DNA from: Delftia acidovorans NBRC 14950
GTDB taxonomy: Bacteria > Pseudomonadota > Gammaproteobacteria > Burkholderiales > Burkholderiaceae_C
Length of the DNA: 32,000 nucleotides
NCBI RefSeq assembly: GCF_001598795.1
Contig: NZ_BCZP01000006.1
Location: 297,008-329,007 of the forward strand
Direction: 5' to 3'
Part shown: piece by piece, positions 3,511 to 21,693 of the stretch
Layout of the letters: every line of letters begins with the position of its first letter
How positions within the stretch are numbered: position 1 is the stretch's first letter
Notes under the pieces: model-generated
What the model was told of the DNA's origin: nothing
What the model saw: the letters and a program-made list of their open reading frames with translations, nothing else
Databases searched by the model: none
Program-made: the position numbers and the translations under genes

Positions 3511-3539
3511 GGAACAGGTTTCAGTGCGGAATCGGAAGG

Positions 3540-4589: not shown

Positions 4590-4616
4590 GGAAGGTTCTC
4601 CAGAAAAAAGAGGAAG

Positions 4617-5639
4617 TCAGACGGTGGCGAAAGGCACGGCGCTGCGCAATGAAGGGAGAACCTCCTGCGCAAACAGTTCCATGCCGGCGAGGGCCTGGGC
4701 ATCGCTCCACAGGCCGTTGGCGTTGAAGACGCAGCGCAGCTGGCCAATGCCCGTGCGCTCGCGCAATGCGGTGATCTGCGCATGGCACTGCTCGGGCGTG
4801 CCATGGATGAATTGTTCGGCCAGCACGCGCGGCACATCGATGGGCAGCACCTGGTCGGCCGGCACGCCGCGCTTGCCCGCAAAGTACACGCGCCGCTGGT
4901 ACAGCTGCGGCCACAGCGTGGCCAGCTGGGCCTGCACGGCGGCCTCATCGGCACCGATGCAGACATAGCGCGCCAGCGATGAACGCGCACGCAGCGCGGC
5001 GGCATCGCGCCCGCGCTCCCGGGCAGCGGCCTCCAGGCGCTCCAGCTGTGTGCCTTCGGGCGGCTCCAGGCTCAGCAGCAGGGGCAGATTCTGATCGACG
5101 GCAAAGCCCAGGGTCTCTGCCGTGGAGCCGGCCACATACAAGGGAGGATGCGGACGCTGCACGGTCGAAGGCAGGGCGGGCCGGTCCTCGAAGCTCCACG
5201 GCCCCTGCCCCGCCACGATGAGCCTGCCGGACAGCGCCTCCACCAGAATGCGGCAGGACTGCGCAAAGCGTTCGCGCGTGCTGTCCGCATCGATCTGCAG
5301 GGCGCGCAGCGCGGCCGGCTCCGTGCCCCGGCCCACGCCCACGTCGATGCGGCCGGCGCTTTGCAGGTCCAGCTGGGCAATCTCCTCGGCCAGCATCAGC
5401 GGGTGGTGCAGCGGCAGCACAAGCACCGAGGTGCCCACGCGCAGCCGCTCGGTGCGCGCCAGCACGGCGGCGGCCAGCAGCAGGGGCGAGGGATAGGGCC
5501 AGGCGGTATCGGGCACGCGGAATTCGTTGAACCACACGCCCTGGAAACCCAGGCGCTCGGCGCGCTCGAACAGCGCCAGGAATTCACGGTGCCCGCCGCG
5601 CGTGGCGTCGCGCGTCCAGCCGGCCAGATCGATGCGCAT
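4617..5639 (-). CDS. LLM-class (luciferase-like) flavin-dependent oxidoreductase
   Basis: 340 aa. MRIDLAGW...FQGVWFNEF...LLLAAAVLARTERLRVGTSVLVLPLHHPLMLAEEIAQLDLQSAGRIDVGVGRG is the typical LLM TIM-barrel signature. It is packed between the ABC ATPase (4-nt gap) and cobW (27-nt gap). Confidence 0.85.
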   Translation of the reverse strand: MRIDLAGWTRDATRGGHREFLALFERAERLGFQGVWFNEFRVPDTAWPYPSPLLLAAAVLARTERLRVGTSVLVLPLHHPLMLAEEIAQLDLQSAGRIDVGVGRGTEPAALRALQIDADSTRERFAQSCRILVEALSGRLIVAGQGPWSFEDRPALPSTVQRPHPPLYVAGSTAETLGFAVDQNLPLLLSLEPPEGTQLERLEAAARERGRDAAALRARSSLARYVCIGADEAAVQAQLATLWPQLYQRRVYFAGKRGVPADQVLPIDVPRVLAEQFIHGTPEQCHAQITALRERTGIGQLRCVFNANGLWSDAQALAGMELFAQEVLPSLRSAVPFATV

Positions 5640-5643
5640 GGGT

Positions 5644-6411
5644 TCAGTTCTCCTGTTTCAGCCGCGCGCGCAGCAAGGTTTGCGGAGGTGCGTCGATGCG
5701 CTCGAAATCCACGCCGAAGACGGCATCCAGCCCCGGCGCATGCAGCAGCTCGGCAGGGGCCCCATCGAGCGCAATGCGCCCCTGGTCCAGCACGATGACG
5801 CGCCCGAAGTGCGCCAGCGCCAGGTCCAGGTCATGCATGACCACCAGCACCAGCCGCTCGCGCCCGCGCTGCGCCAGCGCCTGCACCAGGGCCAGGCGGT
5901 GGCGCACGTCCAGCGCGGCGCCGGGCTCGTCGGCCAGCAGCACGGGCGGGTCGGTGGCCAGCACGGTGGCCAGCAGGGCACGCGCCTGCTCGCCGCCGGA
6001 CAGCGTGGACCAGCGCCTGCGCGCGAAATCCTGCAGCCCGGCGCCGGCAATGGCCGCCTCGACATCACCCCGTCCCGCCAGCCGCATGTGCATGAGCTCG
6101 GCCAGCGTCAGGTCCCAGTGCGGCGCAAAGCGCTGGGGCATGTAGCCCACGCGGCGTGCGCGCTCGGCCACGGGCAGGGTTGCAATGTCTTGCCCGTCCA
6201 GCAGCACGCTGCCGGATGCAGGCGCCTGCAGCCCCGCCAGCAGGGACAGCAGGCTGGACTTGCCCGCGCCATTGGGTCCCACCAGGGCCACGGCGCCGCA
6301 GGCGGGCAGCTGCAGCGAGACGGCGTCCAGCACACTGCGGCCACGATGGCGCAGCGTGAGGGACCGGGCCTGCAGGCGTGGCACGGCGTCGTCCATGGCT
6401 TGATCGTTCAT
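5644..6411 (-). CDS. btuD: ABC transporter ATP-binding protein, iron-siderophore/cobalamin type (BtuD/FecE-like)
   Basis: 255 aa. Walker A GPNGAGKSS, signature LSGGEQ and Walker B LLLADEP. The start overlaps the permease stop (ATGA at 6408-6411 on the minus strand). The symbol rests only on the B12-riboswitch context. Confidence 0.8.
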   Translation of the reverse strand: MNDQAMDDAVPRLQARSLTLRHRGRSVLDAVSLQLPACGAVALVGPNGAGKSSLLSLLAGLQAPASGSVLLDGQDIATLPVAERARRVGYMPQRFAPHWDLTLAELMHMRLAGRGDVEAAIAGAGLQDFARRRWSTLSGGEQARALLATVLATDPPVLLADEPGAALDVRHRLALVQALAQRGRERLVLVVMHDLDLALAHFGRVIVLDQGRIALDGAPAELLHAPGLDAVFGVDFERIDAPPQTLLRARLKQEN

Positions 6412-7430
6412 GCGGACCTCAGCCTGCGCGCGAGCAGCACGATGAAGAAGGGCCCGCCGGCCACGGCCGTGACCAGGCCCAGCGGGATCTCGGCCGGCGG
6501 CAGCACGCTGCGCGCAATGGCATCGGCCAGCGTGACGATGATGGCGCCCGTGAGCGCCGACGCCGGCAGGGCCGCGCGGTGCAGCGGTCCCGCCATCCAG
6601 CGCGCGATGTGCGGCGCAGCCAGGCCCACGAAGGCCACCAGCCCGCCATAGGCCACGGCCACGGCCACCACCAGCGAGCCGGCCAGCACGGCCAGCGGCG
6701 TAAAGCGCGCCACGTCCAGGCCGAAGCCCTGGGCCGCATCCTGTCCCAGGCCCAGCAGGTCCAGCCCGCGCGCCAGCGCCATGGCCCCGGCCAGGCAGGC
6801 CAGGGAGGCACCGGCCAGCAGGCCCAGCCCGCTCCAGGACGGCGTCTGTATGCCCCCCAGCACCCAGCTGAGCACCACCTGCAGGCTCACCGTCTCATCG
6901 GACAGCGCCAGCATCAGGAACGAGCGCAGCGCGCCCAGCACGGCCGCCAGCGCCACGCCGGCCAGCAGCATGCCGGCCGCATCGGTGGCACCGGCCACGC
7001 GCGAGACGGCCAGCACCAGCACGGTCGAACCCCAGGCGCCCGCAAAGGCCAGCACGGGCAGCGTCCAGGCCTGGGACAGGCCGAACAATAGATGCATGGG
7101 AACCAGCAGGGCGACAGTCGCCCCCAGCGCCGCGCCGCCCGAGGCGCCCAGCAGATAGGGCTCGGCCAGCGGATTGCGGAACACGCCCTGGAAGATGGCG
7201 CCCGACAGGCCCAGCAGCGCGCCCACCAGGGCGGCTGCCAGCACGCGCGGCACGCGCCACTGCAGCAGCAGCCGGCTGCGCAGGCTGTCTTCGCCGCCCA
7301 GCGCGGCCAGCAGGTCGGCCGGGCTGGCCCACTGGTGGCCCGCGCAGGCGGCGATCAGCAGGCTGGCCAGCAGCAGCAGGACCGCACCGGCCCAGGGGCG
7401 CCACGCAGGTGTCCGTGAAAGGGAATTCAT
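6408..7430 (-). CDS. btuC: FecCD-family ABC permease (BtuC-like)
   Basis: The track ORF 6408-8288 has a 286-aa Arg/Gly/Ala-rich N-terminal extension that overlaps the binding-protein gene. The credible start is the ATG at 7428-7430 (MNSLSRTPAWRPWAGAVLLLLASLL...). That gives 340 aa of multi-pass hydrophobic sequence with FecCD motifs (FRNPLAEPYLLGASGGAALG). The junction with the upstream gene is an ATGA overlap. Confidence 0.85.
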   Translation of the reverse strand: MNSLSRTPAWRPWAGAVLLLLASLLIAACAGHQWASPADLLAALGGEDSLRSRLLLQWRVPRVLAAALVGALLGLSGAIFQGVFRNPLAEPYLLGASGGAALGATVALLVPMHLLFGLSQAWTLPVLAFAGAWGSTVLVLAVSRVAGATDAAGMLLAGVALAAVLGALRSFLMLALSDETVSLQVVLSWVLGGIQTPSWSGLGLLAGASLACLAGAMALARGLDLLGLGQDAAQGFGLDVARFTPLAVLAGSLVVAVAVAYGGLVAFVGLAAPHIARWMAGPLHRAALPASALTGAIIVTLADAIARSVLPPAEIPLGLVTAVAGGPFFIVLLARRLRSA

Positions 7431-12558: not shown

Positions 12559-13209
12559 ATGTCCAATATGACCCAACGAACCCCTGAACAGCGCCAGCTT
12601 CTGGACCAGCTGGCCCAGATCGCCGAAGGCCTGGGCCAGACCTTTGCCCCGTTCTGCGAGGTGGTGGTGCATGACCTGCTCGACCCGTCCCATGCGGTGC
12701 TGGCCATCCACAACAACCTGTCGGGCCGCGAAGTGGGCCAGGGCGCGACGGAGCTGGGCCTGGCCCGCATCCTCGACCCCGGCTACGAGCAGGTCATCGC
12801 CAACTACCCCAACCAGTTCGCCGATGGCCGCCAGGCCAAGAGCACGTCCATCGGCATCCGCGACTCCGAGGGCCGCTACATCGCCGCCCTGTGCATGAAT
12901 GTGGACCTGACGATGTTCCAGGGCTTCCAGGGCATGCTCAACCGCTTTGCCGCCGTCAGCGGCGACACCCCCGCGCGCGAAATGCTGGACCCCACGGGCG
13001 CCGGTGCAGGCGCCGACACGGTGCGTGCCCGCATCGATCAGTTCGCGGCCCGCCTGGCGACCACGCCGCGCGCCCTCAAGCCCGAGGAGCGGCGCGCCCT
13101 GGTCCGTGAACTCAAGGGCGCCGGCCTGCTGGACCTTCGCCGCTCCATGGAGACCATTGCCGCCCACCTGGGCGTGTCGCGCGCCACGGTCTACAGCTAC
13201 GCCAAGTAG
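12559..13209 (+). CDS. YheO/DauR-like transcriptional regulator (PAS-like sensor plus C-terminal HTH)
   Basis: Only the C-terminal third of track ORF 10894-13209 looks like protein. MSNMTQRTPEQRQLLDQLAQIAEGLGQTFAPFCEVVVHDLLDPSHAVLAIHNNLSGREVG... is the YheO-like PAS domain. The C-terminal IAAHLGVSRATVYSYAK is an HTH. The start is ATG 12559 or ATG 12568. Confidence 0.8.
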   Translation: MSNMTQRTPEQRQLLDQLAQIAEGLGQTFAPFCEVVVHDLLDPSHAVLAIHNNLSGREVGQGATELGLARILDPGYEQVIANYPNQFADGRQAKSTSIGIRDSEGRYIAALCMNVDLTMFQGFQGMLNRFAAVSGDTPAREMLDPTGAGAGADTVRARIDQFAARLATTPRALKPEERRALVRELKGAGLLDLRRSMETIAAHLGVSRATVYSYAK

Positions 13210-13253
13210 GTCCGGGCCCCCCTTCCCGATCCACCCCTGTTTTTCCTGTACCG

Positions 13254-14219
13254 ATGACAAGCCTTCTTCCCACCTACGACGACGTGGCCGCTGCGGCCCA
13301 ACGCATCCAGGGCCATGCCCACCGCACGCCCGTGCTCACCTCGCGCACGCTGGACGATGCGCTGGGCGCCCGCGTCTTCCTGAAGTGCGAGAACCTGCAG
13401 CGCATGGGCGCCTTCAAGTTCCGGGGAGCATTCAATGCGCTGTCGCGCTTCAGCCCCACCCAGCGCAAGGCCGGCGTGGTGGCCTTTTCCTCGGGCAACC
13501 ACGCCCAGGCCATCGCCCTGGCAGCGCGGCTGCTGGAGATCCCCGCCACCATCGTCATGCCGCATGACGCGCCCGCCGCCAAGGTGGCGGCCACCAAGGG
13601 CTATGGCGGCCAGGTGGTGGTCTACGACCGCTATACCGAAGACCGCGAGCAGATCGGCCGCGGCCTGGCCGAGCGCCACGGCCTGACCCTGATCCCGCCC
13701 TACGACCATGCCGACGTGCTGGCCGGCCAGGGCACGGCCGCCAAGGAACTGTTCGAGGAAACCGGCCCGCTGGACGCCCTCTTCGTGCCGCTGGGCGGCG
13801 GCGGCCTGCTGTCGGGCACCGCCCTGTCCACGCGTGCGCTCAGCCCCGAGTGCGCGCTCTACGGCGTGGAGCCCGAGGCCGGCAACGACGGCCAGCAGTC
13901 GCTGCGCGCAGGCCGCATCGTCCACATAGACACCCCCAAGACCATTGCCGACGGCGCCCAGACCCAGCACCTGGGCGGCATCACCTTCCCCATCATCCAG
14001 CGCGACGTGACCGACATCCTCACCGCCAGCGATGCCGAGCTGGTCGATGCCATGGGCTTCCTGGCCACGCGCATGAAGCTCGTGGTCGAGCCCACCGGCT
14101 GCCTGGGCCTTGCCGCCGCGCGCCAGAAAAGCGAAGAACTGCGCGGCCGGCGCGTGGGCATCATCCTCAGCGGCGGCAACGTGGACATGCAGCGCTTTTG
14201 CAGCCTGCTGGGCGCCTGA
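13254..14219 (+). CDS. PLP-dependent serine/threonine dehydratase family enzyme (serine-racemase / threo-3-hydroxyaspartate ammonia-lyase-like)
   Basis: 321 aa. PLP-lysine motif CENLQRMGAFKFRGAFNAL, plus SSGNHAQA and a Gly-rich loop PLGGGGLLSG. Confidence 0.88.
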   Translation: MTSLLPTYDDVAAAAQRIQGHAHRTPVLTSRTLDDALGARVFLKCENLQRMGAFKFRGAFNALSRFSPTQRKAGVVAFSSGNHAQAIALAARLLEIPATIVMPHDAPAAKVAATKGYGGQVVVYDRYTEDREQIGRGLAERHGLTLIPPYDHADVLAGQGTAAKELFEETGPLDALFVPLGGGGLLSGTALSTRALSPECALYGVEPEAGNDGQQSLRAGRIVHIDTPKTIADGAQTQHLGGITFPIIQRDVTDILTASDAELVDAMGFLATRMKLVVEPTGCLGLAAARQKSEELRGRRVGIILSGGNVDMQRFCSLLGA

Positions 14220-14244
14220 TCCTGATCCTGATCCTGGTCCTGAT
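14215..14244. repeat. Hexanucleotide microsatellite (CCTGAT)x5 with one variant copy (CCTGGT)
   Basis: Read directly: cctgat cctgat cctgat cctggt cctgat. It begins inside the last codons of the dehydratase and includes its TGA stop at 14217-14219. Confidence 0.9.
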
Positions 14245-14256
14245 CGAAGGCCGCCC

Positions 14257-14991
14257 TCACCCGCGCGGGCTGAAGGTGCGCGGAAACACCACGGGCGCGC
14301 TGCGGTCGGCCAGGCGGTAGCCCATGGCGGGGCGGCGTGACGTGCCCTCCACCTGGCCGGCCTCCACCAGAAAGCCGGCCGCCATCATGCGCGTGCGAAA
14401 ACCGCTCTTGTCCACGGGGCGGCCCAGCACCACCTCGTAGGCCTGCTGCAGCTGCGGCAGCGTGAAGGGCTCGGGCAGCAGGAACGCCGGCAGCGAGGTG
14501 TACTCCACCTTGCCCCGCAGCCGCTCCACCGCTGCGCGCAGGATCTCGCCGTGGTCGAAGGCCAGCGCAGGCTCGCGCAGCAGTTCATCGACGGCAAACC
14601 ACGACACATCGGCCGCATTCGCGCCCTTGGCCAGGATCAGGTCATGGCCCGGGATCAGCGCGAAATACACATGCGTGGCCGACCAGCCACGCGGGTCGCG
14701 CGCCGCGCCGCCCCAGCTTCCCAGCTGCTCCAGGTAGGGGCTGTCCACACCCGTCTTGTCCAGCAGCTTGCGCCGCGCGCAGGCCAGCAGGTCCGCGTCC
14801 TGGCGCACATCCACAAAGCCGCCGGGCAGCGCCCACAGCCCCGGAAAGGGCTCGCTGCCCGCCGTGGGGCGCTGCACCAGCAGCACCTGCAGGGCATCGT
14901 CAGCCACCGTGAAGATGACCACGTCCACCGTGGTGAACGGGCGCGGGAAGTCCAGCGCGCCCTGCGGGGATGGGGAATTTTTTTCAGCCAT
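14257..14991 (-). CDS. nrtR: NrtR-family transcriptional regulator (Nudix-like ADP-ribose-sensing domain plus C-terminal winged helix)
   Basis: 244 aa. The N-terminal Nudix fold is FTTVDVVIFTV..LQVLLVQR...GLWALPGGFV. The Nudix box is degenerate (RRKLLDKTG where REx2EExG is expected). The C-terminal half is NrtR-typical: LAFDHGEILRAAVERLRGKVEYTSLPAFLLPEPFTLPQLQQAYEVVLGRPVDKSGFRTRM. Confidence 0.88.
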   Translation of the reverse strand: MAEKNSPSPQGALDFPRPFTTVDVVIFTVADDALQVLLVQRPTAGSEPFPGLWALPGGFVDVRQDADLLACARRKLLDKTGVDSPYLEQLGSWGGAARDPRGWSATHVYFALIPGHDLILAKGANAADVSWFAVDELLREPALAFDHGEILRAAVERLRGKVEYTSLPAFLLPEPFTLPQLQQAYEVVLGRPVDKSGFRTRMMAAGFLVEAGQVEGTSRRPAMGYRLADRSAPVVFPRTFSPRG

Positions 14992-15020
14992 GGGATGGAT
15001 TGTGCTTGACGTGCCGGATT

Positions 15021-15066
15021 TTAAGTTGCACTATGCAACCCATACAAGTTGCACAGAGCAACTTAA
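15021..15066. promoter_or_regulatory. Candidate NrtR operator: two adjacent palindromes nested inside a larger inverted repeat
   Basis: Box 1 is GTTGC-ACTAT-GCAAC at 15025-15039. Box 2 is AAGTTGC-ACAGA-GCAACTT at 15046-15064, with perfect 7-bp arms. The outer TTAAGTTGC (15021-15029) and GCAACTTAA (15058-15066) are also inverted repeats. The region lies in the 87-bp gap between divergent nrtR (ATG 14991) and the SPFH gene (ATG 15079). It abuts the AAAGGA RBS at 15065-15070. A possible plus-strand promoter is TTGACG 15006-15011, 17 nt, CACTAT, which would overlap box 1. Confidence 0.55.
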
Positions 15067-15078
15067 AGGAAAAGCACC

Positions 15079-16152
15079 ATGTTCGGCATCCGTTTCATCA
15101 AGTCCCAACCCACGGTCCACCTCATGCAGTTCCGCGCCGGCAAGGTGGTGCGCGAGGGTGCGGGCCAGTCCTTCTTCTACTACGCCCCCACCACCACCCT
15201 GGTCGCGGTGCCCGTGGGCAGCCAGGACTGCCACTTCATGCTGGAGCTGGTGACGGCCGACTTCCAGAGCGTCACCGTGCAGGGCCAGGTCACCTACCGC
15301 ATCAGCACACCGCGCCAGACCGCCACGCTGATGGACTTCTCCCTGGCGCGCGACGGCCAGAAATACATGTCCGAAGACCCGCAGCGCCTGGGCGACCGCG
15401 TGACCATGCAGGCCGAGGTCATCATCCAGCAGGCCGTGCAGGCGCTGGAGCTCAAGCAGGCGCTGCGCTCCTCGGCGCTCATTGCGCGCACGGCCCAGCA
15501 GGAGCTGGCCGCCCAGCCCGAGATCGAGGCGCTGGGGCTGGAGATCCTGGGCGTCTCGGTCATGGCCGTCAAACCCACGCCCGACATCGCCCGCGCCCTG
15601 GAAGCCGAGGCGCGTGAGTCCAACCTCAAGGCTGCGGACGACGCCGTCTATGCCCGCCGCATGGCTGCCGTGGAAAACGAGCGCGCCATCCGCCAGAACG
15701 AGCTCGATACCGATGTGGCCGTGGAAAAGAAAAAGCGCCAGATCCGCGAGGCCCAGCTGGAAGCCAAGGCCGCCCAGATGCGCAAGGAAAACGAGCTGCG
15801 CGCCGAACAGATGTCCGCCGATGTGGCGCTGGAGACCAGCCGCCGCGACTTCGTCGAAGGCCAGGCCGCCAACAGCCGCACCCTGGCCGAGGCCGAGGCC
15901 TACCGCGTGGGCGCCGTCATGCAGGCCCTGGAAAAGGCCGACCCGCGCATCGTGCAATCGCTGGCCGCCGTGGGCATGCAGCCGGGCCAGCTCATCGCCC
16001 AGGCCTTTGGAGGCATTGCCGAGAAGGCCGAGCGCATCGGCCAGCTCAACGTCTCGCCCGAGCTGCTGCAGTCGCTCATGGGCGCCGGTGCAGGCCATGC
16101 AGCTGCCGTGGCCGATCCCGAACCCGCAAGGAGCCGCCGTGAACGCCAATGA
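15079..16152 (+). CDS. SPFH/Band-7 (prohibitin/flotillin-like) domain protein with a coiled-coil tail and no obvious TM helix
   Basis: 357 aa. The SPFH core is VAVPVGSQDCHFMLELVTADFQSVTVQGQVTYRI...LGLEILGVSVMAVKPTPDIARALEAEARE. A charged Ala/Glu/Lys/Arg-rich helical region follows. I saw no 20-residue hydrophobic stretch. The RBS AAAGGA lies 8 nt upstream. Confidence 0.85.
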   Translation: MFGIRFIKSQPTVHLMQFRAGKVVREGAGQSFFYYAPTTTLVAVPVGSQDCHFMLELVTADFQSVTVQGQVTYRISTPRQTATLMDFSLARDGQKYMSEDPQRLGDRVTMQAEVIIQQAVQALELKQALRSSALIARTAQQELAAQPEIEALGLEILGVSVMAVKPTPDIARALEAEARESNLKAADDAVYARRMAAVENERAIRQNELDTDVAVEKKKRQIREAQLEAKAAQMRKENELRAEQMSADVALETSRRDFVEGQAANSRTLAEAEAYRVGAVMQALEKADPRIVQSLAAVGMQPGQLIAQAFGGIAEKAERIGQLNVSPELLQSLMGAGAGHAAAVADPEPARSRRERQ

Positions 16153-17071
16153 ACGCAAGACCGTGCTGGTGGTGCGGCGCACGCGGCTCGATGAGCTGGT
16201 GGCCAAGTACCACACGCTGTCCCAGGCGCGCTTCTACATCGAGCACCTGGGTGCCGACTTCGGCGACTACCTGCGCGAAAGCGCCGCCTACGCCGCCGCC
16301 CTGCAGGCCGTGGTGCAGGCGCTGGAGGCACGCGGCCGCTACCAGATCGTGGACCGCGCCCTGGTGCCCAACTTCGTCTTCGGCGCCGACGACATCGTGG
16401 TGGCACTGGGCCAGGACGGCATGGTGGCCAACACCATGAAATACCTGGACGGCCAGCCGCTCATCGGCGTCAATCCCGAGCCCGCGCGCTGGGACGGCCT
16501 GCTGCTGCCCTTCGCCCCCGCCGACCTGGCCGCCCTGCTGGGCGACGTGGCCGCCAACCGCCGCCCCACGCGCGCCGTCACGCTGGCCGAGGCGCGCCTG
16601 AGCGACGGCCAGGTGCTGCGCGCCGCCAACGACCTGTTCATCGGCCCGCGCAGCCATACCTCGGCCCTGTACGACATCGCGCTGGGCGAGCGGCGCGAAT
16701 CCCAATCGTCCTCCGGCCTCATCGTCGCCACGGGGCTGGGCTCGTCCGCCTGGATCAAGAGCATCGTCACGGGATCGATGGGCATTGCCCGCGCCGTGCG
16801 CGGCGCGTCCACCGACTTCGACTACCAGCCCTTCGCCTGGGATGCGCCACGCCTGGACTTCGCCGTGCGCGAGCCCTTTCCCAGCCGCTCCTCCACGGCC
16901 GAACTGGTCTATGGCCAGGTCACCGCCGGCCAGCCGCTGACCCTGCGCTCGCGCATGCCCGACCATGGCGTCATCTTCTCGGACGGCATGGAAGCCGACT
17001 ACCTGCAGTTCACGGCGGGCATGCAGGCCACCATCGGCCTGTCGGAGCGGCAGGGCTGCCTGGTGGTGTGA
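16139..17071 (+). CDS. NAD kinase-family (ATP-NAD kinase-like) protein with non-canonical motifs
   Basis: In-frame GTG at 16139 preceded by AAGGAG (16128-16133). The start overlaps the SPFH stop by 14 nt. The product VNANERKTVLVVRR... is 310 aa. NADK-type motifs occur in order: VALGQDGMVANT (GGDG becomes GQDG), AANDLFI (NE/ND motif) and SSGLIVATGLGSSAW (the TGSTAY-like motif). Confidence 0.75.
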   Translation: MNANERKTVLVVRRTRLDELVAKYHTLSQARFYIEHLGADFGDYLRESAAYAAALQAVVQALEARGRYQIVDRALVPNFVFGADDIVVALGQDGMVANTMKYLDGQPLIGVNPEPARWDGLLLPFAPADLAALLGDVAANRRPTRAVTLAEARLSDGQVLRAANDLFIGPRSHTSALYDIALGERRESQSSSGLIVATGLGSSAWIKSIVTGSMGIARAVRGASTDFDYQPFAWDAPRLDFAVREPFPSRSSTAELVYGQVTAGQPLTLRSRMPDHGVIFSDGMEADYLQFTAGMQATIGLSERQGCLVV

Positions 17072-17712
17072 AGCCCGAAGCACGGACAATCATCGACACA
17101 ACAAGAAAATCCATGGAAATGGACCGTATGAACAACAAGAACACAATGACATCGACCAGCAAATTCATGAGCCTGGTCCTGCGCCACAACCCCGGCCGCG
17201 CTGGGCTCGCACTGGACGCCCAGGGCTGGGTCTCCATAGACGCATTGCTGCGCGGCGCCCAGGCGGCCGGCCGCAACATCTCACCCGCACTGCTGATGGA
17301 GGTGGTGCAAAGCTGCCCCAAGCAGCGCTTTGCCATCAGCGCCGACGGCCTGCGCATCCGCGCCAGCCAGGGGCATTCCGTGCAGATCGACCTGGGCCTG
17401 CAGGCCAGCGTGCCGCCGCAGCGCCTCTACCATGGCACGGCCACGCGCTTTCTGGACTCCATCCTGCGCACCGGCCTGGACCGGCGCAACCGCCACCACG
17501 TGCACCTGACCGACAACCTGGCCACGGCCCGCTCCGTGGGCCAGCGCTATGGCCGGTTGGTGCTGCTGGAGATCGATGCGGCGCGCATGCATGCCGATGC
17601 CTGCCTGTTCTACCGTTCGGACAACGGCGTCTGGCTCACGGACAGCGTGGCACCGTACTACCTGCGCGTGCTGGCCGAAGAGGAACACGATGAAACCCAT
17701 CATTGCCCTTGA
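17068..17712 (+). CDS. kptA: RNA 2'-phosphotransferase KptA/Tpt1 (NAD-dependent ADP-ribosyl/2'-phosphotransferase)
   Basis: It aligns by eye along its length with E. coli KptA: TSKFMSLVLRHNP, GWVSIDALL, RIRASQGHS, LYHGTATRFLDSI, RHHVHL and NGVWLT. The start is ambiguous. GTG 17068 forms a GTGA overlap with the upstream stop. Internal ATGs at 17113, 17128 and 17146 would give a KptA-sized protein. None has a clear RBS. Confidence 0.88.
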   Translation: MKPEARTIIDTTRKSMEMDRMNNKNTMTSTSKFMSLVLRHNPGRAGLALDAQGWVSIDALLRGAQAAGRNISPALLMEVVQSCPKQRFAISADGLRIRASQGHSVQIDLGLQASVPPQRLYHGTATRFLDSILRTGLDRRNRHHVHLTDNLATARSVGQRYGRLVLLEIDAARMHADACLFYRSDNGVWLTDSVAPYYLRVLAEEEHDETHHCP

Positions 17713-18301
17713 CGCCGATGGCGTGCTGCTGGACTACAACCGCGCCTATGCCGGAGCCTGGGAGCGCGCGTTCGGCCAGCGCCCCGCCGAGGCCGACCCC
17801 CATGCCTACTGGGCCATGGACCGCTGGGCCGTGCAGGCGCTGGACGGCGAGCGCCTGCAACAGTTCAGGGCCTGCATGGACGATGCCTTCTGGCGCAGCA
17901 TTCCCGCGCTGGGCAATGCCTTGCAGGCCTGCCACGACCTGCAGGGCGCCGGCTACGAACTGGTCTGCGTGACGGCCCTGGCGGCGCGCTTCGAGCAGGC
18001 CCGCCTGGGCAACCTGCGCGACCTCGGCTTTCCCATCGACCGCGTGATCGCCACGGGCCGGACCATCGGCGTGCGCAGCCCCAAGGCAGACGCCCTGCAG
18101 CGGCTCGGCCCGGTCGCTTTCGTGGACGACTATCTGCCCTACCTCCGGGACATTGGCCCGGGCATTCACGCGGCCCTGGTGTGCCGTGGCCCGAACGGCA
18201 CGCCCAACACCGGGCCGGACCTGGTCCACGCCCACTCGCAGCACGCAGACCTGATGGCCTTCAGTCAGTGGTGGCTGCAGCAAGCTCCATCGCATTCCTG
18301 A
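17690..18301 (+). CDS. HAD-superfamily phosphatase/nucleotidase-like hydrolase
   Basis: The start is ATG 17690 after GAAGAGGAA, and it overlaps the kptA end by 23 nt. 203 aa. HAD motif I is IIALDADGVLLD, motif II is VCVTAL, then a Lys (SPKAD), and motif IV is FVDDY. Confidence 0.78.
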   Translation: MKPIIALDADGVLLDYNRAYAGAWERAFGQRPAEADPHAYWAMDRWAVQALDGERLQQFRACMDDAFWRSIPALGNALQACHDLQGAGYELVCVTALAARFEQARLGNLRDLGFPIDRVIATGRTIGVRSPKADALQRLGPVAFVDDYLPYLRDIGPGIHAALVCRGPNGTPNTGPDLVHAHSQHADLMAFSQWWLQQAPSHS

Positions 18302-18329
18302 AACGGCACACACGGCAACGAGACAGCCC

Positions 18330-18911
18330 ATGACCACCACAGACCACATCGCCTCCCTGCAAGACCTCCAGAACGCCATGGCCCAGGGTCTCACCCCGCG
18401 CTTCCTGCCGTTCTGGGGCCACCAGCCTGCGGCCGATGGCTCCATCGGCAAGACCTGCATGAGCCAGTGGTTCGAGGCGGGTTTCGAGGTCGATGGCCAG
18501 CACTACCCCACGGCCGAGCATTTCATGATGGCGGGCAAGGCACGGCTGTTTGGCGACGAGGCGGCGCACGCGGCCATCGTGCGCTGCCGCACGCCGGGCG
18601 AGGCCAAGAAGCTGGGGCGTGGCATCCAGGGCTTTGATGAAGCGGCCTGGGTGGCCGCGCGCATGGGCATCGTGGTGCGCGCCAACGAGGCCAAGTTCTC
18701 CCAGAACCCGGCCCTGGCCAGCTATCTGCTGAACACGGGCGACCGGGTTCTGGTGGAAGCCAGCCCCGTGGACGCCATCTGGGGCATCGGCCTGGCAGCC
18801 GACGATGTGCGCGCCGCCAATCCCGCGCGCTGGCAGGGCCTGAACCTGCTGGGCTTTGCCCTCATGCAGGTGCGCGCGCGGCTGCGCAGCACCGCTCCTG
18901 AACAACCATGA
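18330..18911 (+). CDS. NADAR (DUF1768/YbiA-like) family protein
   Basis: 193 aa. The pattern is NADAR-typical: FLPFWGH....MSQWF...FEVDGQHYPTAEHFMMAGKARLFGD...KKLGRGIQGFDEAAW...KFSQNPAL..LLNTGDRVLVEASPVDAIWGIGL....W.GLNLLGFALMQVR. Confidence 0.82.
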   Translation: MTTTDHIASLQDLQNAMAQGLTPRFLPFWGHQPAADGSIGKTCMSQWFEAGFEVDGQHYPTAEHFMMAGKARLFGDEAAHAAIVRCRTPGEAKKLGRGIQGFDEAAWVAARMGIVVRANEAKFSQNPALASYLLNTGDRVLVEASPVDAIWGIGLAADDVRAANPARWQGLNLLGFALMQVRARLRSTAPEQP

Positions 18912-19876
18912 GCGCGAGCACAGGCATGGCCATGGACACGCTGGACCGATACCGTGGTGCCCTGCTGGGCCTGGCCTGTGGCGATGCCGTGGGAACGACG
19001 CTGGAATTCCAGCCGCGCGGCAGCTTTGCGCCGCTGACCGACATGGTCGGCGGCGGCCCGTTCTCGCTGCCCGCAGGCAAGTGGACCGACGACACCTCCA
19101 TGGCCCTGTGCCTGGCCGAAAGCCTGCTCCAGCGCGGCGGCTGCGACCCGCAGGACCAGATGACGCGCTATGCCAACTGGTACGAATGGGGGTACTGGAG
19201 TTCCACCGGCAACTGCTTTGACATCGGCATGGCCACCAGGGCGGCCATCCAGCGCTTCCTGGCCACCGGCGATCCGCTGGCCGGGTCGCCCGACCCGGAC
19301 CAGGCCGGCAACGGCTCCCTGATGCGGCTGGCGCCCGTGCCCATGTTCTTCGGCCCCGACGAGGACCTGGTGCAGCGCATGGCTGAACTCAGCTCACGCA
19401 CCACCCACGCGGCACCTGAATGCCTGCAGGCCTGCCGCCTGTTCGCCGTGGCGCTGTGCCGGGCACTGCAGGGACTGCCCCGGTCGCAGGTTCTGGACCT
19501 GGGCGGCGTTCTGCAAGACTGCGCCAGCCCACGCCTGCGGGAGATTGCCCGTGGCGACTATCGCGACAAGCCGGCCGCACAGATTCGCGGCAGCGGCTAC
19601 GTGGTGGACAGCCTGGAGGCGGCCCTGTGGTGCTTTGCGAGGCATGACAGCTTTGAAGGCGCGGTACTGCAGGCCGCCAACCTGGGCGATGACGCCGACA
19701 CCACGGCAGCCATCACGGGCCAGTTGGCAGGAGCCCTCCACGGCGCCAGCGGCATTGCGGACCGCTGGCTGGAACGCCTGCACCTGGCCCCTGAGATCAC
19801 AGCCCTGGCCGATGCGCTCTGGCAAGCCGCCAGAGGTGCCAGTGACACTTCTCCGACCGCACCTCTCAGCAACTGA
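18908..19876 (+). CDS. ADP-ribosylglycohydrolase family protein (ARH/DraG-like)
   Basis: 322 aa, with an ATGA overlap with the NADAR stop. Motifs are RYRGALLGLACGDAVGTTLEF, WTDDTSMALCLAESL, GNGSLMRLAPV and LGDDADTTAAITGQLAGALHG. Confidence 0.9.
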   Translation: MSASTGMAMDTLDRYRGALLGLACGDAVGTTLEFQPRGSFAPLTDMVGGGPFSLPAGKWTDDTSMALCLAESLLQRGGCDPQDQMTRYANWYEWGYWSSTGNCFDIGMATRAAIQRFLATGDPLAGSPDPDQAGNGSLMRLAPVPMFFGPDEDLVQRMAELSSRTTHAAPECLQACRLFAVALCRALQGLPRSQVLDLGGVLQDCASPRLREIARGDYRDKPAAQIRGSGYVVDSLEAALWCFARHDSFEGAVLQAANLGDDADTTAAITGQLAGALHGASGIADRWLERLHLAPEITALADALWQAARGASDTSPTAPLSN

Positions 19877-20175
19877 GCGGACTGGACCAGGCTTGTCTGC
19901 GCAACCTCCACGCACCCGAGCTCCGTGACACGCGGGCCTTGCTCTTTACGAATGGCGTGCATGGGCGGCTTTTGACTGAGCCACGCTCCATTATCAGAGC
20001 AGTCTGATTGCATCACCTCATATCTTCGGCGTAGAGTGCGAAATACTAAAGAGGCCACCCATCGAATGATTCGATGCTTTCATTTCCAGCCTCTCATTAT
20101 TCACTCAAAAGTTCAATAAAACTATTGCGTGATATTTTCGAGAATCATACTTCAGCAATGGAGCGAATCAGTATC

Positions 20176-21264
20176 ATGCATTCTTCTTTCATTCCGTCAT
20201 TTCCCTCGCAAGTACGCCGCCTTGCATTGATCGCCCTTCCATTTCTCATCGCCTTTTCAGCGGCAACGATGAACACCAATGCCTTTGCCGGGGGCGTATT
20301 CTCCCCCACCAGCTCCAGCATTTCACTGCCCGAGGAAATAACAGTACCCGGAAATTACTCCAACGGATCGACGCTATGGAAGTCTACGGCAACCGTATTT
20401 AATCTTAAAGCGGTGCTGAACACGGCATTCGAGTACGATGTTTCCAAAGCTGTTGTAGCCGCCAATGTTCAATCCGGAAACAAGACGCCCGGATACAATA
20501 ATGTCTACAGCACCAATATTCCCGGCATTGGAATCCGCTGGTGGGCAACATGGCGCGGCCCCAGCGCTCCCAGTGGCAGAACCATGCCCATTACCACCGA
20601 ATCAGAAAATCATTCGGGCGCGCTGGGTTATTTCTGGAATGTTTCATCCACCCAGGATGTCTGGATCGAGCTGGTGAAAACCGGCAGCGTTTCCGCTGGC
20701 GTGCTAACGGGCTCCGGGATGAACGTCGATATGCGATTCCAGTGCCCCAACTGCATCGCAGGAAACGTCAACCTGTCCGGCCGCACCAGGGTGGTGGTCG
20801 GTCCCTCCTGCTCGGTGGCCGCCTCGACCATCTCCGTACCCATGGGCGCTGTGCCCATCCTGCGATTCACGGGCCTCCAATCCACCTCCATCCCCCAGCA
20901 CTTCGACATCACGCTGGAATGCAAGGGCGGCGCGCCCGAAAGCGTTCTGCGCCCCCACATCACGCTCACCGATGCCAACGACACCAGCAATCGGAGCACC
21001 GTCCTGACCTTGAGCCAGACCGCGCCAGACGGCAAGCCGGTTGCCACCGGAATAGGCATACAGATATTGAAGGATGGCACCGCTCTCGGCTACGGCCCGG
21101 ACTCCAACGTGCCTGGCAACACCAACCAATGGAGTGCGGGAACCATCGTCCAGGGCGTTGCCCAGTTCAAGATCCCGCTGACTGCCAAATACGTGCAGAC
21201 CGCTGCGGCAGTCACGACGGGGCAGGCCAACGGCAGGGCCACCTTCACGCTGAACTACCAGTGA
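20176..21264 (+). CDS. Fimbrial (chaperone-usher type) two-domain adhesin-like subunit, orphan
   Basis: The signal peptide is MHSSFIPSFPSQVRRLALIALPFLIAFSAATMNTNAFA. An N-terminal domain of roughly 190 aa has no family I recognise. The C-terminal pilin-like domain begins GPSCSVAASTISVPMGAV...FDITLECKGG (Cys pair) and ends in the classic fimbrial terminus GRATFTLNYQ. Alternative upstream starts are at 20158 and 20074. GC is markedly lower than in the flanks. Confidence 0.72.
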   Translation: MHSSFIPSFPSQVRRLALIALPFLIAFSAATMNTNAFAGGVFSPTSSSISLPEEITVPGNYSNGSTLWKSTATVFNLKAVLNTAFEYDVSKAVVAANVQSGNKTPGYNNVYSTNIPGIGIRWWATWRGPSAPSGRTMPITTESENHSGALGYFWNVSSTQDVWIELVKTGSVSAGVLTGSGMNVDMRFQCPNCIAGNVNLSGRTRVVVGPSCSVAASTISVPMGAVPILRFTGLQSTSIPQHFDITLECKGGAPESVLRPHITLTDANDTSNRSTVLTLSQTAPDGKPVATGIGIQILKDGTALGYGPDSNVPGNTNQWSAGTIVQGVAQFKIPLTAKYVQTAAAVTTGQANGRATFTLNYQ

Positions 21265-21279
21265 GCAGCGTCCCCGCCC

Positions 21280-21693
21280 TCAGGGCTTCTTGTCCAGCTG
21301 CATTTCCCAGGACTTGAGCTGCTTGGTGCGGGCGCGGGCGAAGTCGCTCCAGCAGTTGGCGCGCGCATCGTCCTTGGCAAAGCTGGCGGAATTGAATTCA
21401 GAGAGGAACTCGCAGGCACTGCGCGCGTACTGCACCCAGTTCCTCTGCGCCACTTCCAGCTCTTCCGACGCCTGGGGCATGCGGGCCTTGAGCTTGAGCG
21501 ACAGCGAGGCGTAGGCGGCCTTGACCATGGCCACGTTCTGCTCGTGCAGGCAGGCGCGCACCTCGGACATGTTGGTGGAGCTTTCCTCGCAATTGCCCGA
21601 GCTGGTGGGATTGGCGGCCCAGGCCACGGGGCTGGCACACAGCAGGGCGGCGCAGGCGAGAGGGGCGAGTAGGGACGCTAGGGCTTGGTGCAT
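21280..21693 (-). CDS. DUF1311 / LprI-like (lysozyme-inhibitor family) secreted protein
   Basis: The likely start is MHQALASLLAPLACAALLCASPVAWA (signal peptide) at 21693. The DUF1311 pattern is C..S.T.MSEVRAC...........Y..L..........L...QR.W..Y....C. Confidence 0.7.
   Translation of the reverse strand: MHQALASLLAPLACAALLCASPVAWAANPTSSGNCEESSTNMSEVRACLHEQNVAMVKAAYASLSLKLKARMPQASEELEVAQRNWVQYARSACEFLSEFNSASFAKDDARANCWSDFARARTKQLKSWEMQLDKKP

Follow-up and report, generated by a model that had tools for sequence, protein, structure and literature searches.

An NrtR divergon of Delftia acidovorans with an SPFH and NAD kinase-like core and sporadic ADP-ribose-processing genes

Described relatives of the locus

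A divergon in which nrtR faces the gene pair nrtX-nrtY, of unknown function, was predicted by Rodionov et al. in 2008 and listed for Proteus mirabilis; Betaproteobacteria lay outside the coverage of that study (PMC2330246). In vitro, ADPR and 2'-phospho-ADPR free NrtR from DNA (PMC2330246), and release by ligands of the ADP-ribose type is established for the Shewanella and Synechocystis regulators. The locus described here lies in a window of 32,000 nt from Delftia acidovorans NBRC 14950 (contig NZ_BCZP01000006.1). It has the same build as the predicted divergon, with a divergent nrtR, operators in the shared intergenic region and then two genes, here encoding an SPFH protein and a NAD kinase (NADK)-like protein. 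Judged by sequence, the core of the window matches this member of the NrtR regulon, and we infer that nrtX is the SPFH gene and nrtY the NADK-like gene. In the P. mirabilis genome nrtR is divergent from SPFH and NADK-like genes, and the three products are 43, 38 and 47% identical to the window proteins. The SPFH-kinase pair of Streptomyces lies apart from nrtR, in agreement with the table in PMC2330246. The window differs from the 2008 divergon in its four extra downstream genes and in its predicted operator, GTTGYA-N3-TRCAAC (centre GT-N5-AC), as opposed to the GT-N7-AC core of most groups in PMC2330246.

Classical NrtR salvage regulons (nrtR with pncA-pncB-nadE or prs-nadV; Pseudomonas aeruginosa, Shewanella) share with the window the regulator family and the logic by which a NAD breakdown product de-represses NAD supply. 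Unlike them, the window holds no salvage or biosynthesis gene, and has a kinase, a scaffold and ADP-ribose-processing enzymes instead. From computational analysis, Iyer, Burroughs, Anantharaman and Aravind predicted in 2022 a set of ARG-centric anti-ADP-ribosylation systems that combine a Nudix transcription factor, ARG, a HAD phosphatase and NADAR (PMC9503650, section 3.8). Like the window, they have a Nudix-HTH repressor with ADP-ribose as its predicted ligand, alongside an ARG/ARH hydrolase and a coupled HAD-type phosphatase; NADAR or Macro is optional and the accessories vary. Where the window has SPFH, these systems have vWA, SseB or TY-Chap as chaperones, and their conserved centre is ARG, whereas here it is the SPFH-kinase pair. 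No experimental characterisation of the present arrangement was found, as the preliminary description of this DNA had also stated.

Gene layout, regulator and predicted operators

All seven ORFs of the locus (Table 1) were intact, with six co-oriented on the + strand and divergent from nrtR, as first described. The same layout was found in the NCBI gene calls of two Delftia assemblies that encode an identical ARH protein. Most of the junctions noted earlier were confirmed, namely the 14-nt overlap of the SPFH and NADK-like genes at 16139/16152 (GTG start, AAGGAG 8 nt upstream), the 23-nt overlap of the KptA and HAD genes at 17690/17712, the 28-nt gap before the NADAR gene and the ATGA overlap of the NADAR and ARH genes at 18908-18911. 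The bases GTGA are likewise present at 17068-17071, but the overlap of the NADK-like and KptA genes read from them is doubtful. In the NCBI call KptA begins at ATG 17128 (194 aa), which is also where conservation among KptA orthologues sets in; the alternative GTG start at 17068 yields 214 aa. More probably nrtY and kptA are separated by a gap of 56 nt, which could hold a separate promoter. A scan of the + strand between 15079 and 19876 found no terminator-like site. A consensus scan of the nrtR/nrtX intergenic region found no sigma-70 promoter.

Table 1. Features of the Delftia locus, in window coordinates
Feature	Position	Strand	Length and basis
nrtR, predicted ADP-ribose-responsive Nudix-wHTH repressor	14257..14991	-	244 aa; degenerate Nudix box; Pfam and structure match
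Predicted NrtR operator 1, perfect palindrome GTTGCA-CTA-TGCAAC	15025..15039		motif scan and conservation
Predicted NrtR operator 2, GTTGCA-CAG-AGCAAC	15048..15062		motif scan and conservation
nrtX, SPFH/Band-7 protein	15079..16152	+	357 aa; Pfam Band_7
nrtY, NADK2-type NAD kinase homologue	16139..17071	+	310 aa; profile-to-PDB and predicted fold
kptA/tpt1, NAD-dependent 2'-phosphotransferase	17128..17712	+	194 aa; Pfam PTS_2-RNA
HAD-superfamily phosphatase, weakly NT5C-like	17690..18301	+	203 aa; DxDGV motif I
NADAR-domain N-glycosidase/ADP-ribosyl hydrolase	18330..18911	+	193 aa; Pfam NADAR
ADP-ribosylglycohydrolase, ARH/DraG/Tri1-like	18908..19876	+	322 aa; Pfam ADP_ribosyl_GH; ATGA-coupled to NADAR
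Weak terminator-like hairpin with T-rich tail	19922..19946	+	first such site past the six genes

The nrtR product matched Pfam NUDIX (1.9e-16) and NrtR_WHD (6e-21), as well as the Shewanella NrtR structure 3gz5 (E 2e-48). Its degenerate Nudix box had been taken to mark a sensor rather than a hydrolase; this held, and the degeneracy turned out to be a family trait. In the REUxEExGU stretch, 59 orthologues show R-K-L-x-E/D-K-T-G-V (R-K-L-x-D-K-T-G-V in the window protein); at two catalytic Glu positions they have Lys, essentially without variation.

Palindromes had been pointed out at 15021-15066, and two predicted operators were located there, in tandem and 23 bp apart. The second lies 16 nt upstream of the SPFH start and extends to AAGTTGCACAGAGCAACTT (15046-15064). 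Their consensus matches the 32 kb window twice, against 0.16 matches expected. The motif is kept in 55 of 66 orthologous intergenic regions, with 101 sites in 8.0 kb of such DNA compared with 2 in 935 kb elsewhere, and the spacing is 23-24 bp in 42 of the 46 loci with two sites.

Conserved core and sporadic accessories

Profile searches upheld six of the seven family assignments made earlier. Scores exceeded the Pfam gathering values for NUDIX and NrtR_WHD, Band_7, PTS_2-RNA, NADAR and ADP_ribosyl_GH; the HAD assignment was weak, with NT5C (7e-5) and Hydrolase (8.5e-4) both below gathering score. The NADK-like protein had no Pfam match and was assigned by the other routes given below. Family motifs are kept in all five enzymes.

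The SPFH protein (Band_7, 5e-14; 53 bits against a cutoff of 23.6) has no transmembrane segment, its peak 19-residue hydropathy being 1.25, and its C-terminal half is long, charged and helical. To our knowledge, no SPFH protein has a role in nucleotide metabolism, and no paper naming both SPFH and NAD kinase was found in the literature searched. One protein in which SPFH and kinase are fused was found.

By both profile and fold, the best solved relative of nrtY is human mitochondrial NADK2/C5orf33 (PDB 7r4j, 7n29). The profile-to-PDB match to 7r4j had an E of 7e-21, and that to bacterial NadK was weaker (1e-7); the AF2 model (pLDDT 96) aligned with NADK2 at a Foldseek TM of 0.74-0.77. The conserved motifs are GxDG, ND and SSSG...GSxxW, the GGDG motif reading GQDG. 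NADK2 shares the GxDG and N-D/E motifs, and the Ser and Trp of its specific signature (PMC3535332) also replace in nrtY the Asp and Tyr of classical NAD kinases. Unlike NADK2, nrtY is bacterial, lacks the NADK2 insertion and is translationally coupled to an SPFH gene; identity is about 20%. Its score falls below every curated NAD kinase threshold. Sequence motifs and the structural model support a NADK2-type NAD kinase homologue, with NAD kinase activity as a prediction.

Co-occurrence was counted in kinase-anchored loci of 80 genomes. The SPFH gene adjoins the kinase in 79/80; nrtR is present in 70/80 and directly divergent in 66/80. In contrast, KptA occurs in 7/80, NADAR in 5-6/80, ARH in 3-4/80 and HAD in 3/80, with ADP-ribose-type accessories in 11/80 loci altogether. 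The conserved unit is nrtR with the SPFH and NADK-like genes, and KptA, HAD, NADAR and ARH are sporadic accessories, an add-on of this Delftia lineage. The self-contained six-gene module of the preliminary description, co-occurring as a unit with nrtR, was not recovered, and the SPFH-kinase pair, which it had treated as a side feature, is the core. The pair is widespread in bacteria, including Proteus, Rhizobium plasmids, Streptomyces, Clostridia and Planctomycetota. The nearest other Delftia species among the genomes compared lacks all four accessory genes, and synteny with Delftia sp. PS-11 ends precisely at the stop codon of the kinase gene. An unrelated orphan low-GC fimbrial adhesin gene is part of the inserted segment (17070-21274) as well.

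Salvage genes adjoin the same core, with pncA in 11/80 loci, pncB in 9/80 and either or both, beside the same nrtR, in 13/80. The NAD context comes from a minority of loci, since in 54/80 the core stands alone with nothing NAD-related beside it. One operon, from Clostridiales, has the order nrtR-pncA-pncB-Macro-KptA-x-SPFH-NADKl, and KptA-anchored loci repeatedly contain nrtR, pncA/B, Macro, ARH and NADAR. In the window and in L015, L027, L029, L039, L040 and L090, kptA lies directly 3' of the kinase gene.

The window KptA (PTS_2-RNA 7e-47; Runella Tpt1 7kw8, E 3e-49) has the invariant residues R19, H20, R67, R78 and R122. The NADAR protein matched Pfam NADAR (6e-51), TIGR02464 (155 bits, cutoff 73.7), structure 8bau (E 2e-20) and the PADLOC candidate defence family PDC-M42C (2.5e-39). 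ARH matched ADP_ribosyl_GH (4e-81) and the structures 2cwc (6e-79) and Tri1 6dre (3e-73); against NCBIfam Tri1 it scored 331 bits, below the cutoff of 490.

Proposed working and alternative explanations

We give roughly even odds (about 0.5) to the reading that the NrtR divergon works as a regulon, induced by ADP-ribose, for restoring NAD(P) and clearing ADP-ribose derivatives. NrtR, with its catalytically lost Nudix domain, would occupy the two tandem palindromes, whose placement over the promoter region is evident from sequence and conservation. On NAD(P) breakdown, ADP-ribose or 2'-phospho-ADP-ribose would build up and take NrtR off the DNA, and the operon would then be read as a single transcription unit. 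Fold and motifs suggest a kinase that rebuilds NADP(H) by phosphorylating NAD(H) again, with an SPFH assembly holding or regulating it. Going by family chemistry, the appended enzymes may handle by-products: HAD and ARH would remove phosphate or ADP-ribose from derivatives and modified macromolecules, and NADAR would take off base-linked ADP-ribose. In other lineages the same core is joined by salvage genes (pncA/pncB) or by Macro, KptA, NADAR and ARH. The window KptA keeps the catalytic Arg and His of the archaeal Tpt1 enzymes that transfer the NADP(H) 2'-phosphate onto NAD+ (PMC10622864), and adjoins a predicted maker of a 2'-phosphorylated dinucleotide, the phosphate donor that Tpt1 can use. 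With kptA right behind a predicted NAD 2'-kinase, the proposed NADP(H) role of KptA becomes testable. Regulation of Tpt1 was not known according to PMC10622864, whereas the window kptA lies in an operon predicted to respond to ADPR.

An unlikely, though the strongest, alternative is counter-attack immunity of the ARG-centric type, a system that would remove ADP-ribose which toxins of phages or competitors have attached to the host's proteins or nucleic acids; NrtR would sense the freed ADP-ribose, ARH, NADAR and HAD would act as erasers, and SPFH would serve as chaperone or scaffold. The component list of PMC9503650, the closeness of ARH to the Tri1 immunity hydrolase, the PADLOC match of NADAR, the variable accessories, the patchy taxonomy and the location of the pair on plasmids or chromids are consistent with this. 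However, ARG-centric systems were selected for having no linked ART-fold enzyme and KptA is linked here, ARG is found with so few core relatives, and nrtR, SPFH and the kinase had no PADLOC match. The core proteins also evolve slowly, those of Delftia being 70-80% identical to their Burkholderia or Ralstonia counterparts, and the plain salvage genes pncA/pncB pair with the core just as often.

The model first proposed for this DNA, a self-contained system of reversible nucleic-acid ADP-ribosylation or RNA repair, now appears quite improbable. In it, KptA would consume NAD to write on 5'-phosphate ends and NADAR and ARH would be dedicated erasers. Tpt1/KptA does cap 5'-phosphorylated RNA and DNA with ADP-ribose (cited in PMC11833690; PMC12678800), ARH-type hydrolases can remove such phosphate-end ADP-ribose (PMC11833690), and KptA, NADAR and ARH meet again in a few loci (L025, L040). 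Yet NADAR enzymes cannot remove phosphate-end ADP-ribose from RNA (PMC11833690), which weakens the writer-eraser pairing; the four genes are not co-conserved with one another or with the core; and the locus has no RNA ligase, 2H phosphoesterase or polynucleotide kinase. The most frequent partners of KptA in NrtR loci are instead pncA/pncB, Macro and DUF4291.

Slightly less probable still is chance juxtaposition, with the four downstream genes and the fimbrial gene gathered in a variable spot and functionally unlinked to nrtXY. The break of synteny in PS-11, the adhesin gene within the segment and the many unrelated contexts of the HAD homologues (about 1,900, in mostly unrelated neighbourhoods) point that way, but KptA, NADAR, ARH, Macro and HAD recur beside the core in differing orders and in distant taxa including Clostridiales, far above expectation for individually uncommon families, and the junctions are tight, with no terminator between genes.

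Least probable is a purely inferential signal-nucleotide generator, in which the kinase makes NADP(H) out of NAD(H), KptA at once passes the 2'-phosphate of this product to a second NAD+ and HAD, ARH and NADAR degrade the resulting alarmone: the recurrent kinase-kptA order fits, and ADPR>p has been proposed as a signalling molecule (PMC10622864), but KptA occurs in only about 9% of core loci, no receptor or effector is evident, and the transfer of the NADP(H) 2'-phosphate onto NAD+ was demonstrated with two archaeal Tpt1 enzymes only, at high enzyme concentration (Jacewicz, Dantuluri and Shuman 2023, PMC10622864).

Gene layout and the conserved core

Six intact ORFs in a single orientation were found by inspection of the plus strand of the window (15079-19876), encoding in order an SPFH protein, an NADK-like kinase, KptA/Tpt1, a HAD protein, NADAR and an ADP-ribosylglycohydrolase (ARH). 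The NCBI calls of two Delftia assemblies with an identical ARH protein give the same layout, and the kinase shares 98% identity with an entry from Delftia tsuruhatensis. The preliminary description was right on four of the five junctions in the string. The exception is a GTGA at 17068, which had been read as a coupled kinase/KptA junction but is probably not the KptA start codon, since NCBI places that start at ATG 17128 and conservation among orthologues begins there too; the real junction would be a 56-nt gap. No terminator-like site was found within the six genes in a scan of the plus strand, and Rfam at gathering thresholds gave no match in 13000-21500. A sigma-70 consensus scan of the window's nrtR/SPFH intergenic region did not find a promoter; a TTGACG seen by eye at 15006-15011 would place operator 1 over the -10 region. 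On the far side of nrtR (stop 14257), a 37-bp spacer separates it from a convergent PALP-enzyme gene (stop 14219), with a hexamer repeat, GATCCT GATCCT GATCCT GGTCCT GATC, at 14219-14250.

Table. Features of the nrtR locus in window coordinates
Feature	Position	Strand	Description
nrtR	14257-14991	-	intact ORF, divergent from the six-gene string
Predicted operator 1	15025-15039		15-bp palindrome GTTGCACTATGCAAC, nrtR/SPFH intergenic region
Predicted operator 2	15048-15062		15-bp palindrome GTTGCACAGAGCAAC, nrtR/SPFH intergenic region
SPFH/kinase junction	16139/16152	+	14-nt overlap, AAGGAG 8 nt upstream
KptA/HAD junction	17690/17712	+	23-nt overlap
HAD/NADAR junction		+	28-nt gap
NADAR/ARH junction	18908	+	ATGA
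First terminator-like site	19922	+	3' of ARH

Eighty loci anchored on the kinase were searched with all seven window proteins, and co-occurrence was counted by tblastn. The SPFH gene lies immediately upstream of the kinase gene in 79/80 loci, and nrtR is present in 70/80 and directly divergent from SPFH in 66/80, whereas KptA was found in 7, NADAR in 5-6, ARH in 3-4 and HAD in 3. By this comparison, the conserved unit is the three-gene core nrtR-SPFH-kinase. The earlier reading of the six genes as one self-contained module is contradicted by these counts, and the SPFH-kinase pair, previously treated as a side feature, is the constant part.

Delftia sp. PS-11, the closest congeneric species among the loci compared, carries nrtR-SPFH-kinase and none of the four accessory genes. 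Nucleotide synteny with PS-11 covers 13266-17069, where it ends with the stop codon of the kinase gene, and begins again at 21275. The segment between (17070-21274) contains the genes for KptA, HAD, NADAR and ARH together with an orphan fimbrial gene of low GC content, and has no direct or inverted repeats at its ends. Because it is absent from PS-11 between the two synteny blocks, this segment is, on the alignment, a lineage-specific addition. The orphan gene (20074-21264) encodes an adhesin with Pfam Fimbrial and MrkD-like receptor-binding domains; the GC content of this patch is 0.54-0.57 against about 0.69 (composition measured over 19500-21000), and no usher or chaperone gene lies beside it.

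An arrangement of this kind was listed in 2008 by Rodionov et al. (PMC2330246), whose Table 1 gives 'nrtR<#>nrtX-nrtY' for Proteus mirabilis, Kineococcus and Frankia, describes both genes of the pair as 'of unknown function', and places nrtX-nrtY at a separate site-bearing locus in Hahella and Streptomyces. Our inference is that nrtX corresponds to the SPFH gene and nrtY to the kinase gene. The P. mirabilis locus fits the published divergon, with nrtR (minus strand, 4067-4771) divergent from a two-gene pair of SPFH (plus strand, 4924-5925) and NADK-like kinase (plus strand, 5950-6861), the products being 43, 38 and 47% identical to the window proteins in the order nrtR, SPFH, kinase. A Streptomyces yangpuensis plasmid carries the pair without an adjacent nrtR, as in the published table, and has a von Willebrand factor A (vWA) gene directly 5' of it (3129-6852). 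In the literature searched, no further paper using nrtX and nrtY in the NrtR sense was found, nor any experimental characterisation, in agreement with the preliminary description. In the window, a predicted NrtR regulon that is known but unexplained has been elaborated in a lineage-specific way.

The pair occurs in at least 584 species-representative genomes, and the nrtY family counts more than 4,346 homologues in 90%-identity clusters and 286 clusters at 50% identity with E <1e-30. The SPFH-kinase pair was found in Proteus, Providencia, on Acinetobacter and Rhizobium plasmids, and in Streptomyces, Treponema, Clostridia and Planctomycetota; one 4.08-Mb 'plasmid' record looks like a chromosome. 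In the P. mirabilis record (NZ_OL790811.1; 5950-8792), the kinase gene is followed by tet(J) at a distance of ~740 bp. Small plasmids of Pasteurella, Actinobacillus, Psychrobacter and Aeromonas (plasmid matches H34-H40) hold C-terminal kinase-gene fragments only, which looks as though part of nrtY was carried along in the mobilisation of a gene next to it.

A scan of viral contigs with the kinase profile returned only one 98% identical Delftia-derived contig and one distant match, and the pair was rejected as a phage counter-defence gene set, being essentially absent from viral contigs. The 98% identical contig (IMG/VR UViG 2895169357_000003) is a 46-kb predicted viral contig that begins within the kinase gene. 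Rather than a phage-borne copy, it is probably part of a Delftia genome in which the boundary of a provirus was called in the wrong place.

NrtR and its predicted operators

The nrtR product has the N-terminal Nudix fold (Pfam NUDIX 1.9e-16, residues 22-152) and the C-terminal NrtR-type winged helix (NrtR_WHD 6e-21, residues 169-227) of the NrtR family, and matches the Shewanella NrtR structure 3gz5 with E 2e-48 over residues 15-238. It scores 237 bits against a cut-off of 400 for the NCBIfam equivalog NF050029, which by sequence places it within the family and outside the curated equivalog set. Across 59 NrtR orthologues the Nudix signature reads R-K-L-x-E/D-K-T-G-V, with two catalytic Glu replaced by essentially invariant Lys, a pattern tied by Rodionov et al. 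to loss of hydrolase activity (PMC2330246). Electrophoretic mobility shift assays in the same study showed release of Shewanella NrtR from DNA by ADP-ribose (ADPR) and 2'-phospho-ADPR (pADPR); relief by ADP-ribose has been shown only for the Shewanella and Synechocystis proteins (PMC2330246).

The two palindromes between nrtR and SPFH are the sole matches to the motif in the 32 kb, where 0.16 would be expected. The 66 loci with nrtR divergent from SPFH were surveyed allowing up to one mismatch, and at least one match was found in 55/66 and two in 46/66. Among the 46 loci with two sites, 42 have them 23-24 bp apart. In total, 101 sites fell in 8.0 kb of intergenic sequence against 2 in 935 kb of flanks, an enrichment of ~6,000-fold. 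The consensus differs from the GT-N7-AC core of the NrtR sites in PMC2330246. The site conservation and the Lys-substituted signature make the predicted operator placement and the sensor character of NrtR well supported, in line with the NrtR control suggested earlier; NrtR would bind these operators and the operon would be induced on its release. One of the two flank sites (at 15626 of L027) adjoins a pncA-pncB operon and a second nrtR paralogue. Such a paralogue with pncA-pncB was seen ~5 kb downstream of the core in Methylibium and Albitalea (about 13500-16400 in L015 and 13500-15700 in L027), and these loci therefore hold two NrtR-type regulators.

Proteins of the core and of the appended segment

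The nrtY product has no Pfam match, NAD_kinase included, and reaches 16 bits against NCBIfam NadK equivalogs with cut-offs of 316-371. A profile built from an alignment of 56 diverse family members matched human mitochondrial NADK2 best among solved structures (7r4j, E 7e-21), with bacterial NadK/PpnK chains at about 1e-7 only. The AlphaFold (AF2) model from the same alignment has a pLDDT of 96 and a pTM of 0.91, compared with a pLDDT of 63 when the alignment was shallow and limited to sequences of 70% identity or more. It shows the two-domain NAD kinase fold, and Foldseek ranked NADK2 structures 7r4l, 7r4j and 7n29 on top (E ~1e-21, TM 0.69-0.77), followed by bacterial NadK. The GxDG motif is present as GQDG, with G91 and G94 invariant and D93 kept in at least 90% of the 56 members, and the second Gly of GGDG is not kept in the family. 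N164-D165 corresponds to the N-D/E motif, and S190-S192, G193 and W205 of an SSSG...GSxxW stretch are invariant or nearly so in these members; the Ser and Trp of this stretch are the residues that specifically in NADK2 take the place of the classical Asp and Tyr (Ohashi et al., PMC3535332). Profile match, fold ranking and motifs mark nrtY as a bacterial NADK2-type kinase homologue with predicted activity, so that the earlier 'NADK-like' call is both borne out and sharpened (7r4j E 7e-21; fold TM 0.74-0.77).

The SPFH domain of nrtX was recognised by Pfam Band_7 (5e-14, 53.2 bits against 23.6, residues 16-188), and with its profile, chains of HflK, flotillin and stomatin were matched only weakly (E 0.1-0.4). 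Single-sequence PDB searches with the SPFH and HAD proteins gave no match. Stomatin, HflK/C and YqiK typically have an N-terminal membrane anchor and/or an NfeD operon partner, whereas nrtX has neither: no hydrophobic segment was found (maximum 19-residue Kyte-Doolittle score 1.25), and its neighbours are nrtR and the kinase rather than NfeD. In the literature searched, no paper mentions SPFH together with NAD kinase, and a survey of SPFH proteins in P. aeruginosa makes no reference to NAD. In one metagenome assembly, a 574-aa protein (P0186) joins Band_7 (16-197) to an NADK-like region (270-571); it could be a genuine SPFH-kinase fusion, or else an artefact of assembly or of a frameshift.

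Among the appended proteins, KptA gave strong matches to Pfam PTS_2-RNA (7e-47, 160 bits) and structure 7kw8 (E 3e-49), narrowly missed the NCBIfam equivalog (235.4 against 239), and has the Tpt1/KptA catalytic residues R19, H20, R67, R78 and R122, invariant in 7 sequences. NADAR was identified by Pfam (6e-51, 173 bits against 35.1), TIGR02464 (155 bits against 73.7) and structure 8bau (E 2e-20), and its domain fits two candidate substrates, ADP-ribosyl-guanine or a riboflavin intermediate. ARH matched Pfam ADP_ribosyl_GH (4e-81, 273 bits), scored 331 bits against the Tri1 equivalog (cut-off 490) and 153 against DraG (cut-off 337), and has 2cwc and Tri1 6dre as closest structures (6dre E 3e-73). 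The HAD protein has the DxDGV motif I and weak HAD/NT5C Pfam matches below the gathering score; its homologues are common in Burkholderiales, mostly in unrelated contexts, and no relation to NAD was seen in HAD-anchored neighbourhoods. The family calls made earlier thus stand by Pfam for nrtR, SPFH, KptA, NADAR and ARH and by NADK2 profile and fold for the kinase, with HAD as the exception, and the ADP-ribose-centred chemistry read earlier is kept as the predicted one. A DarT-NADAR (DarTG-like) toxin-antitoxin system was rejected, no DarT model being matched by the seven proteins in PADLOC or Pfam.

Recurrent neighbours, rival readings and a proposed role

NAD-related genes lie within 4 kb of the core in 26/80 loci and come in two non-overlapping flavours. 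Of the 13 loci of the salvage flavour, 11 carry a divergent nicotinamidase gene and 9 an NAPRTase gene, usually placed immediately downstream of nrtR. The ADP-ribose-processing flavour (11 loci) has Macro in 8, KptA in 7, NADAR in 5, ARH in 3 and DUF4291 in 2. Where KptA joins the core, it is usually directly 3' of the kinase, and a ~120-aa protein follows KptA in 5 of the 11 loci; one Clostridiales contig has the order nrtR-pncA-pncB-Macro-KptA-(824 aa)-SPFH-kinase. In the reverse test, 80 metagenomic loci were anchored on KptA, and an nrtR-family gene was found nearby in 11/80, often with pncA/B, Macro, ARH, NADAR or DUF4291. Since the kinase was present in only one of these 11, KptA is, by neighbourhood counts, a recurrent member of NrtR-type neighbourhoods and not a dedicated SPFH-kinase partner. 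The ~120-aa family has no Pfam or NCBIfam match. It follows KptA in four Burkholderiales loci and forms the N-terminus of the 824-aa methyltransferase-containing protein of the Clostridiales locus (L025 10170-10550, L029 9538-9885, L039 9492-9860, L040 9539-9892, L079 4505-4849); it also occurs in KptA-anchored metagenome loci. DUF4291 is another repeated neighbour of KptA.

The 2022 'ARG-centric' anti-ADP-ribosylation systems, named after ADP-ribosylglycohydrolase (ARG), share with the window a Nudix transcription factor, ARG, a HAD-type phosphatase and NADAR (PMC9503650). The vWA proteins among their 'chaperones' recall the vWA gene that precedes the Streptomyces pair. A role in conflict would also agree with the patchy distribution, with the carriage of the pair on plasmids in places, with the Tri1-like ARH and with the match of NADAR to a PADLOC candidate. 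By definition, such systems have no ART-fold enzyme linked to them, whereas KptA, which has the ART fold, stands in the window string, and ARG, their centre, is present in only 3-4/80 relatives while SPFH and kinase are constant. The core proteins are moreover highly conserved, and the nrtR, SPFH, kinase, KptA, HAD and ARH products have no match in PADLOC. These points weigh against membership in that class; a conflict role keeps some probability.

The preliminary description had instead proposed KptA as a writer of ADP-ribosylation, with NADAR and ARH as its erasers. This model is weakened, as the accessories are not co-conserved and NADARs cannot strip phosphate-end ADP-ribose from RNA, a reaction open to ARH- and macro-type enzymes (PMC11833690). 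Pure chance juxtaposition of the accessories with the core is unlikely, because the same families recur with it in different orders and in different phyla.

Sequence and comparison together show a sensor-type NrtR, two conserved predicted operators and an SPFH-kinase pair with tightly coupled genes, behind which the set of ADP-ribose enzymes varies. In the most likely reading, breakdown of NAD(P) would raise ADPR or pADPR, NrtR would dissociate and the operon would be expressed. The NADK2-type kinase, scaffolded or gated by an SPFH assembly, would then rebuild NADP(H) from NAD(H), and in Delftia the appended enzymes would remove ADP-ribose derivatives or return them to use. A bolder proposal makes nrtX-nrtY a widespread, unrecognised device in which an SPFH assembly gates a mitochondrial-type (NADK2-like) kinase that is switched on by NAD breakdown products, a long shot to which we give a probability of roughly 0.12.

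What bacterial Tpt1/KptA does in the cell has been a question since the 1990s. Archaeal Tpt1 was shown to move the 2'-phosphate from NADP(H) onto NAD+, yielding NAD(H), nicotinamide and ADP-ribose cyclic phosphate (ADPR>p); the latest proposal is that it might serve NADP(H) dynamics or signalling by ADPR>p, with no Tpt1 regulation known (Jacewicz, Dantuluri and Shuman, PMC10622864). In agreement with that proposal, kptA lies directly 3' of an NAD 2'-kinase homologue in the window and is predicted to stand under the control of an ADPR sensor. The theme, with its conserved predicted ADP-ribose-sensor operator, recurs in unrelated bacteria and therefore offers a concrete system for the NADP(H)/ADPR>p idea. 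If the gated-kinase device is real, bacterial KptA would gain a long-sought physiological substrate and a regulated setting. The locus is of value mainly as a way into the roles of both KptA and nrtX-nrtY. A soluble SPFH protein paired with an NADK2-type kinase also leads to the hypothesis of a new kind of SPFH client. The nrtY family may be the closest prokaryotic relative of mitochondrial NADK2 and may bear on the origin of the mitochondrial NAD kinase.

HAD was found within 4 kb of the core in 3/80 loci and a PTP/rhodanese-type phosphatase in 1/80. The latter (L029, 5002-5619) lies in the nrtR operon beside Macro; Pfam assigns it to BLH_phosphatase, with a weaker match to PTP-NADK ('phosphatase fused to NAD+ kinase'), an independent hint of a tie between such phosphatases and NAD kinases.
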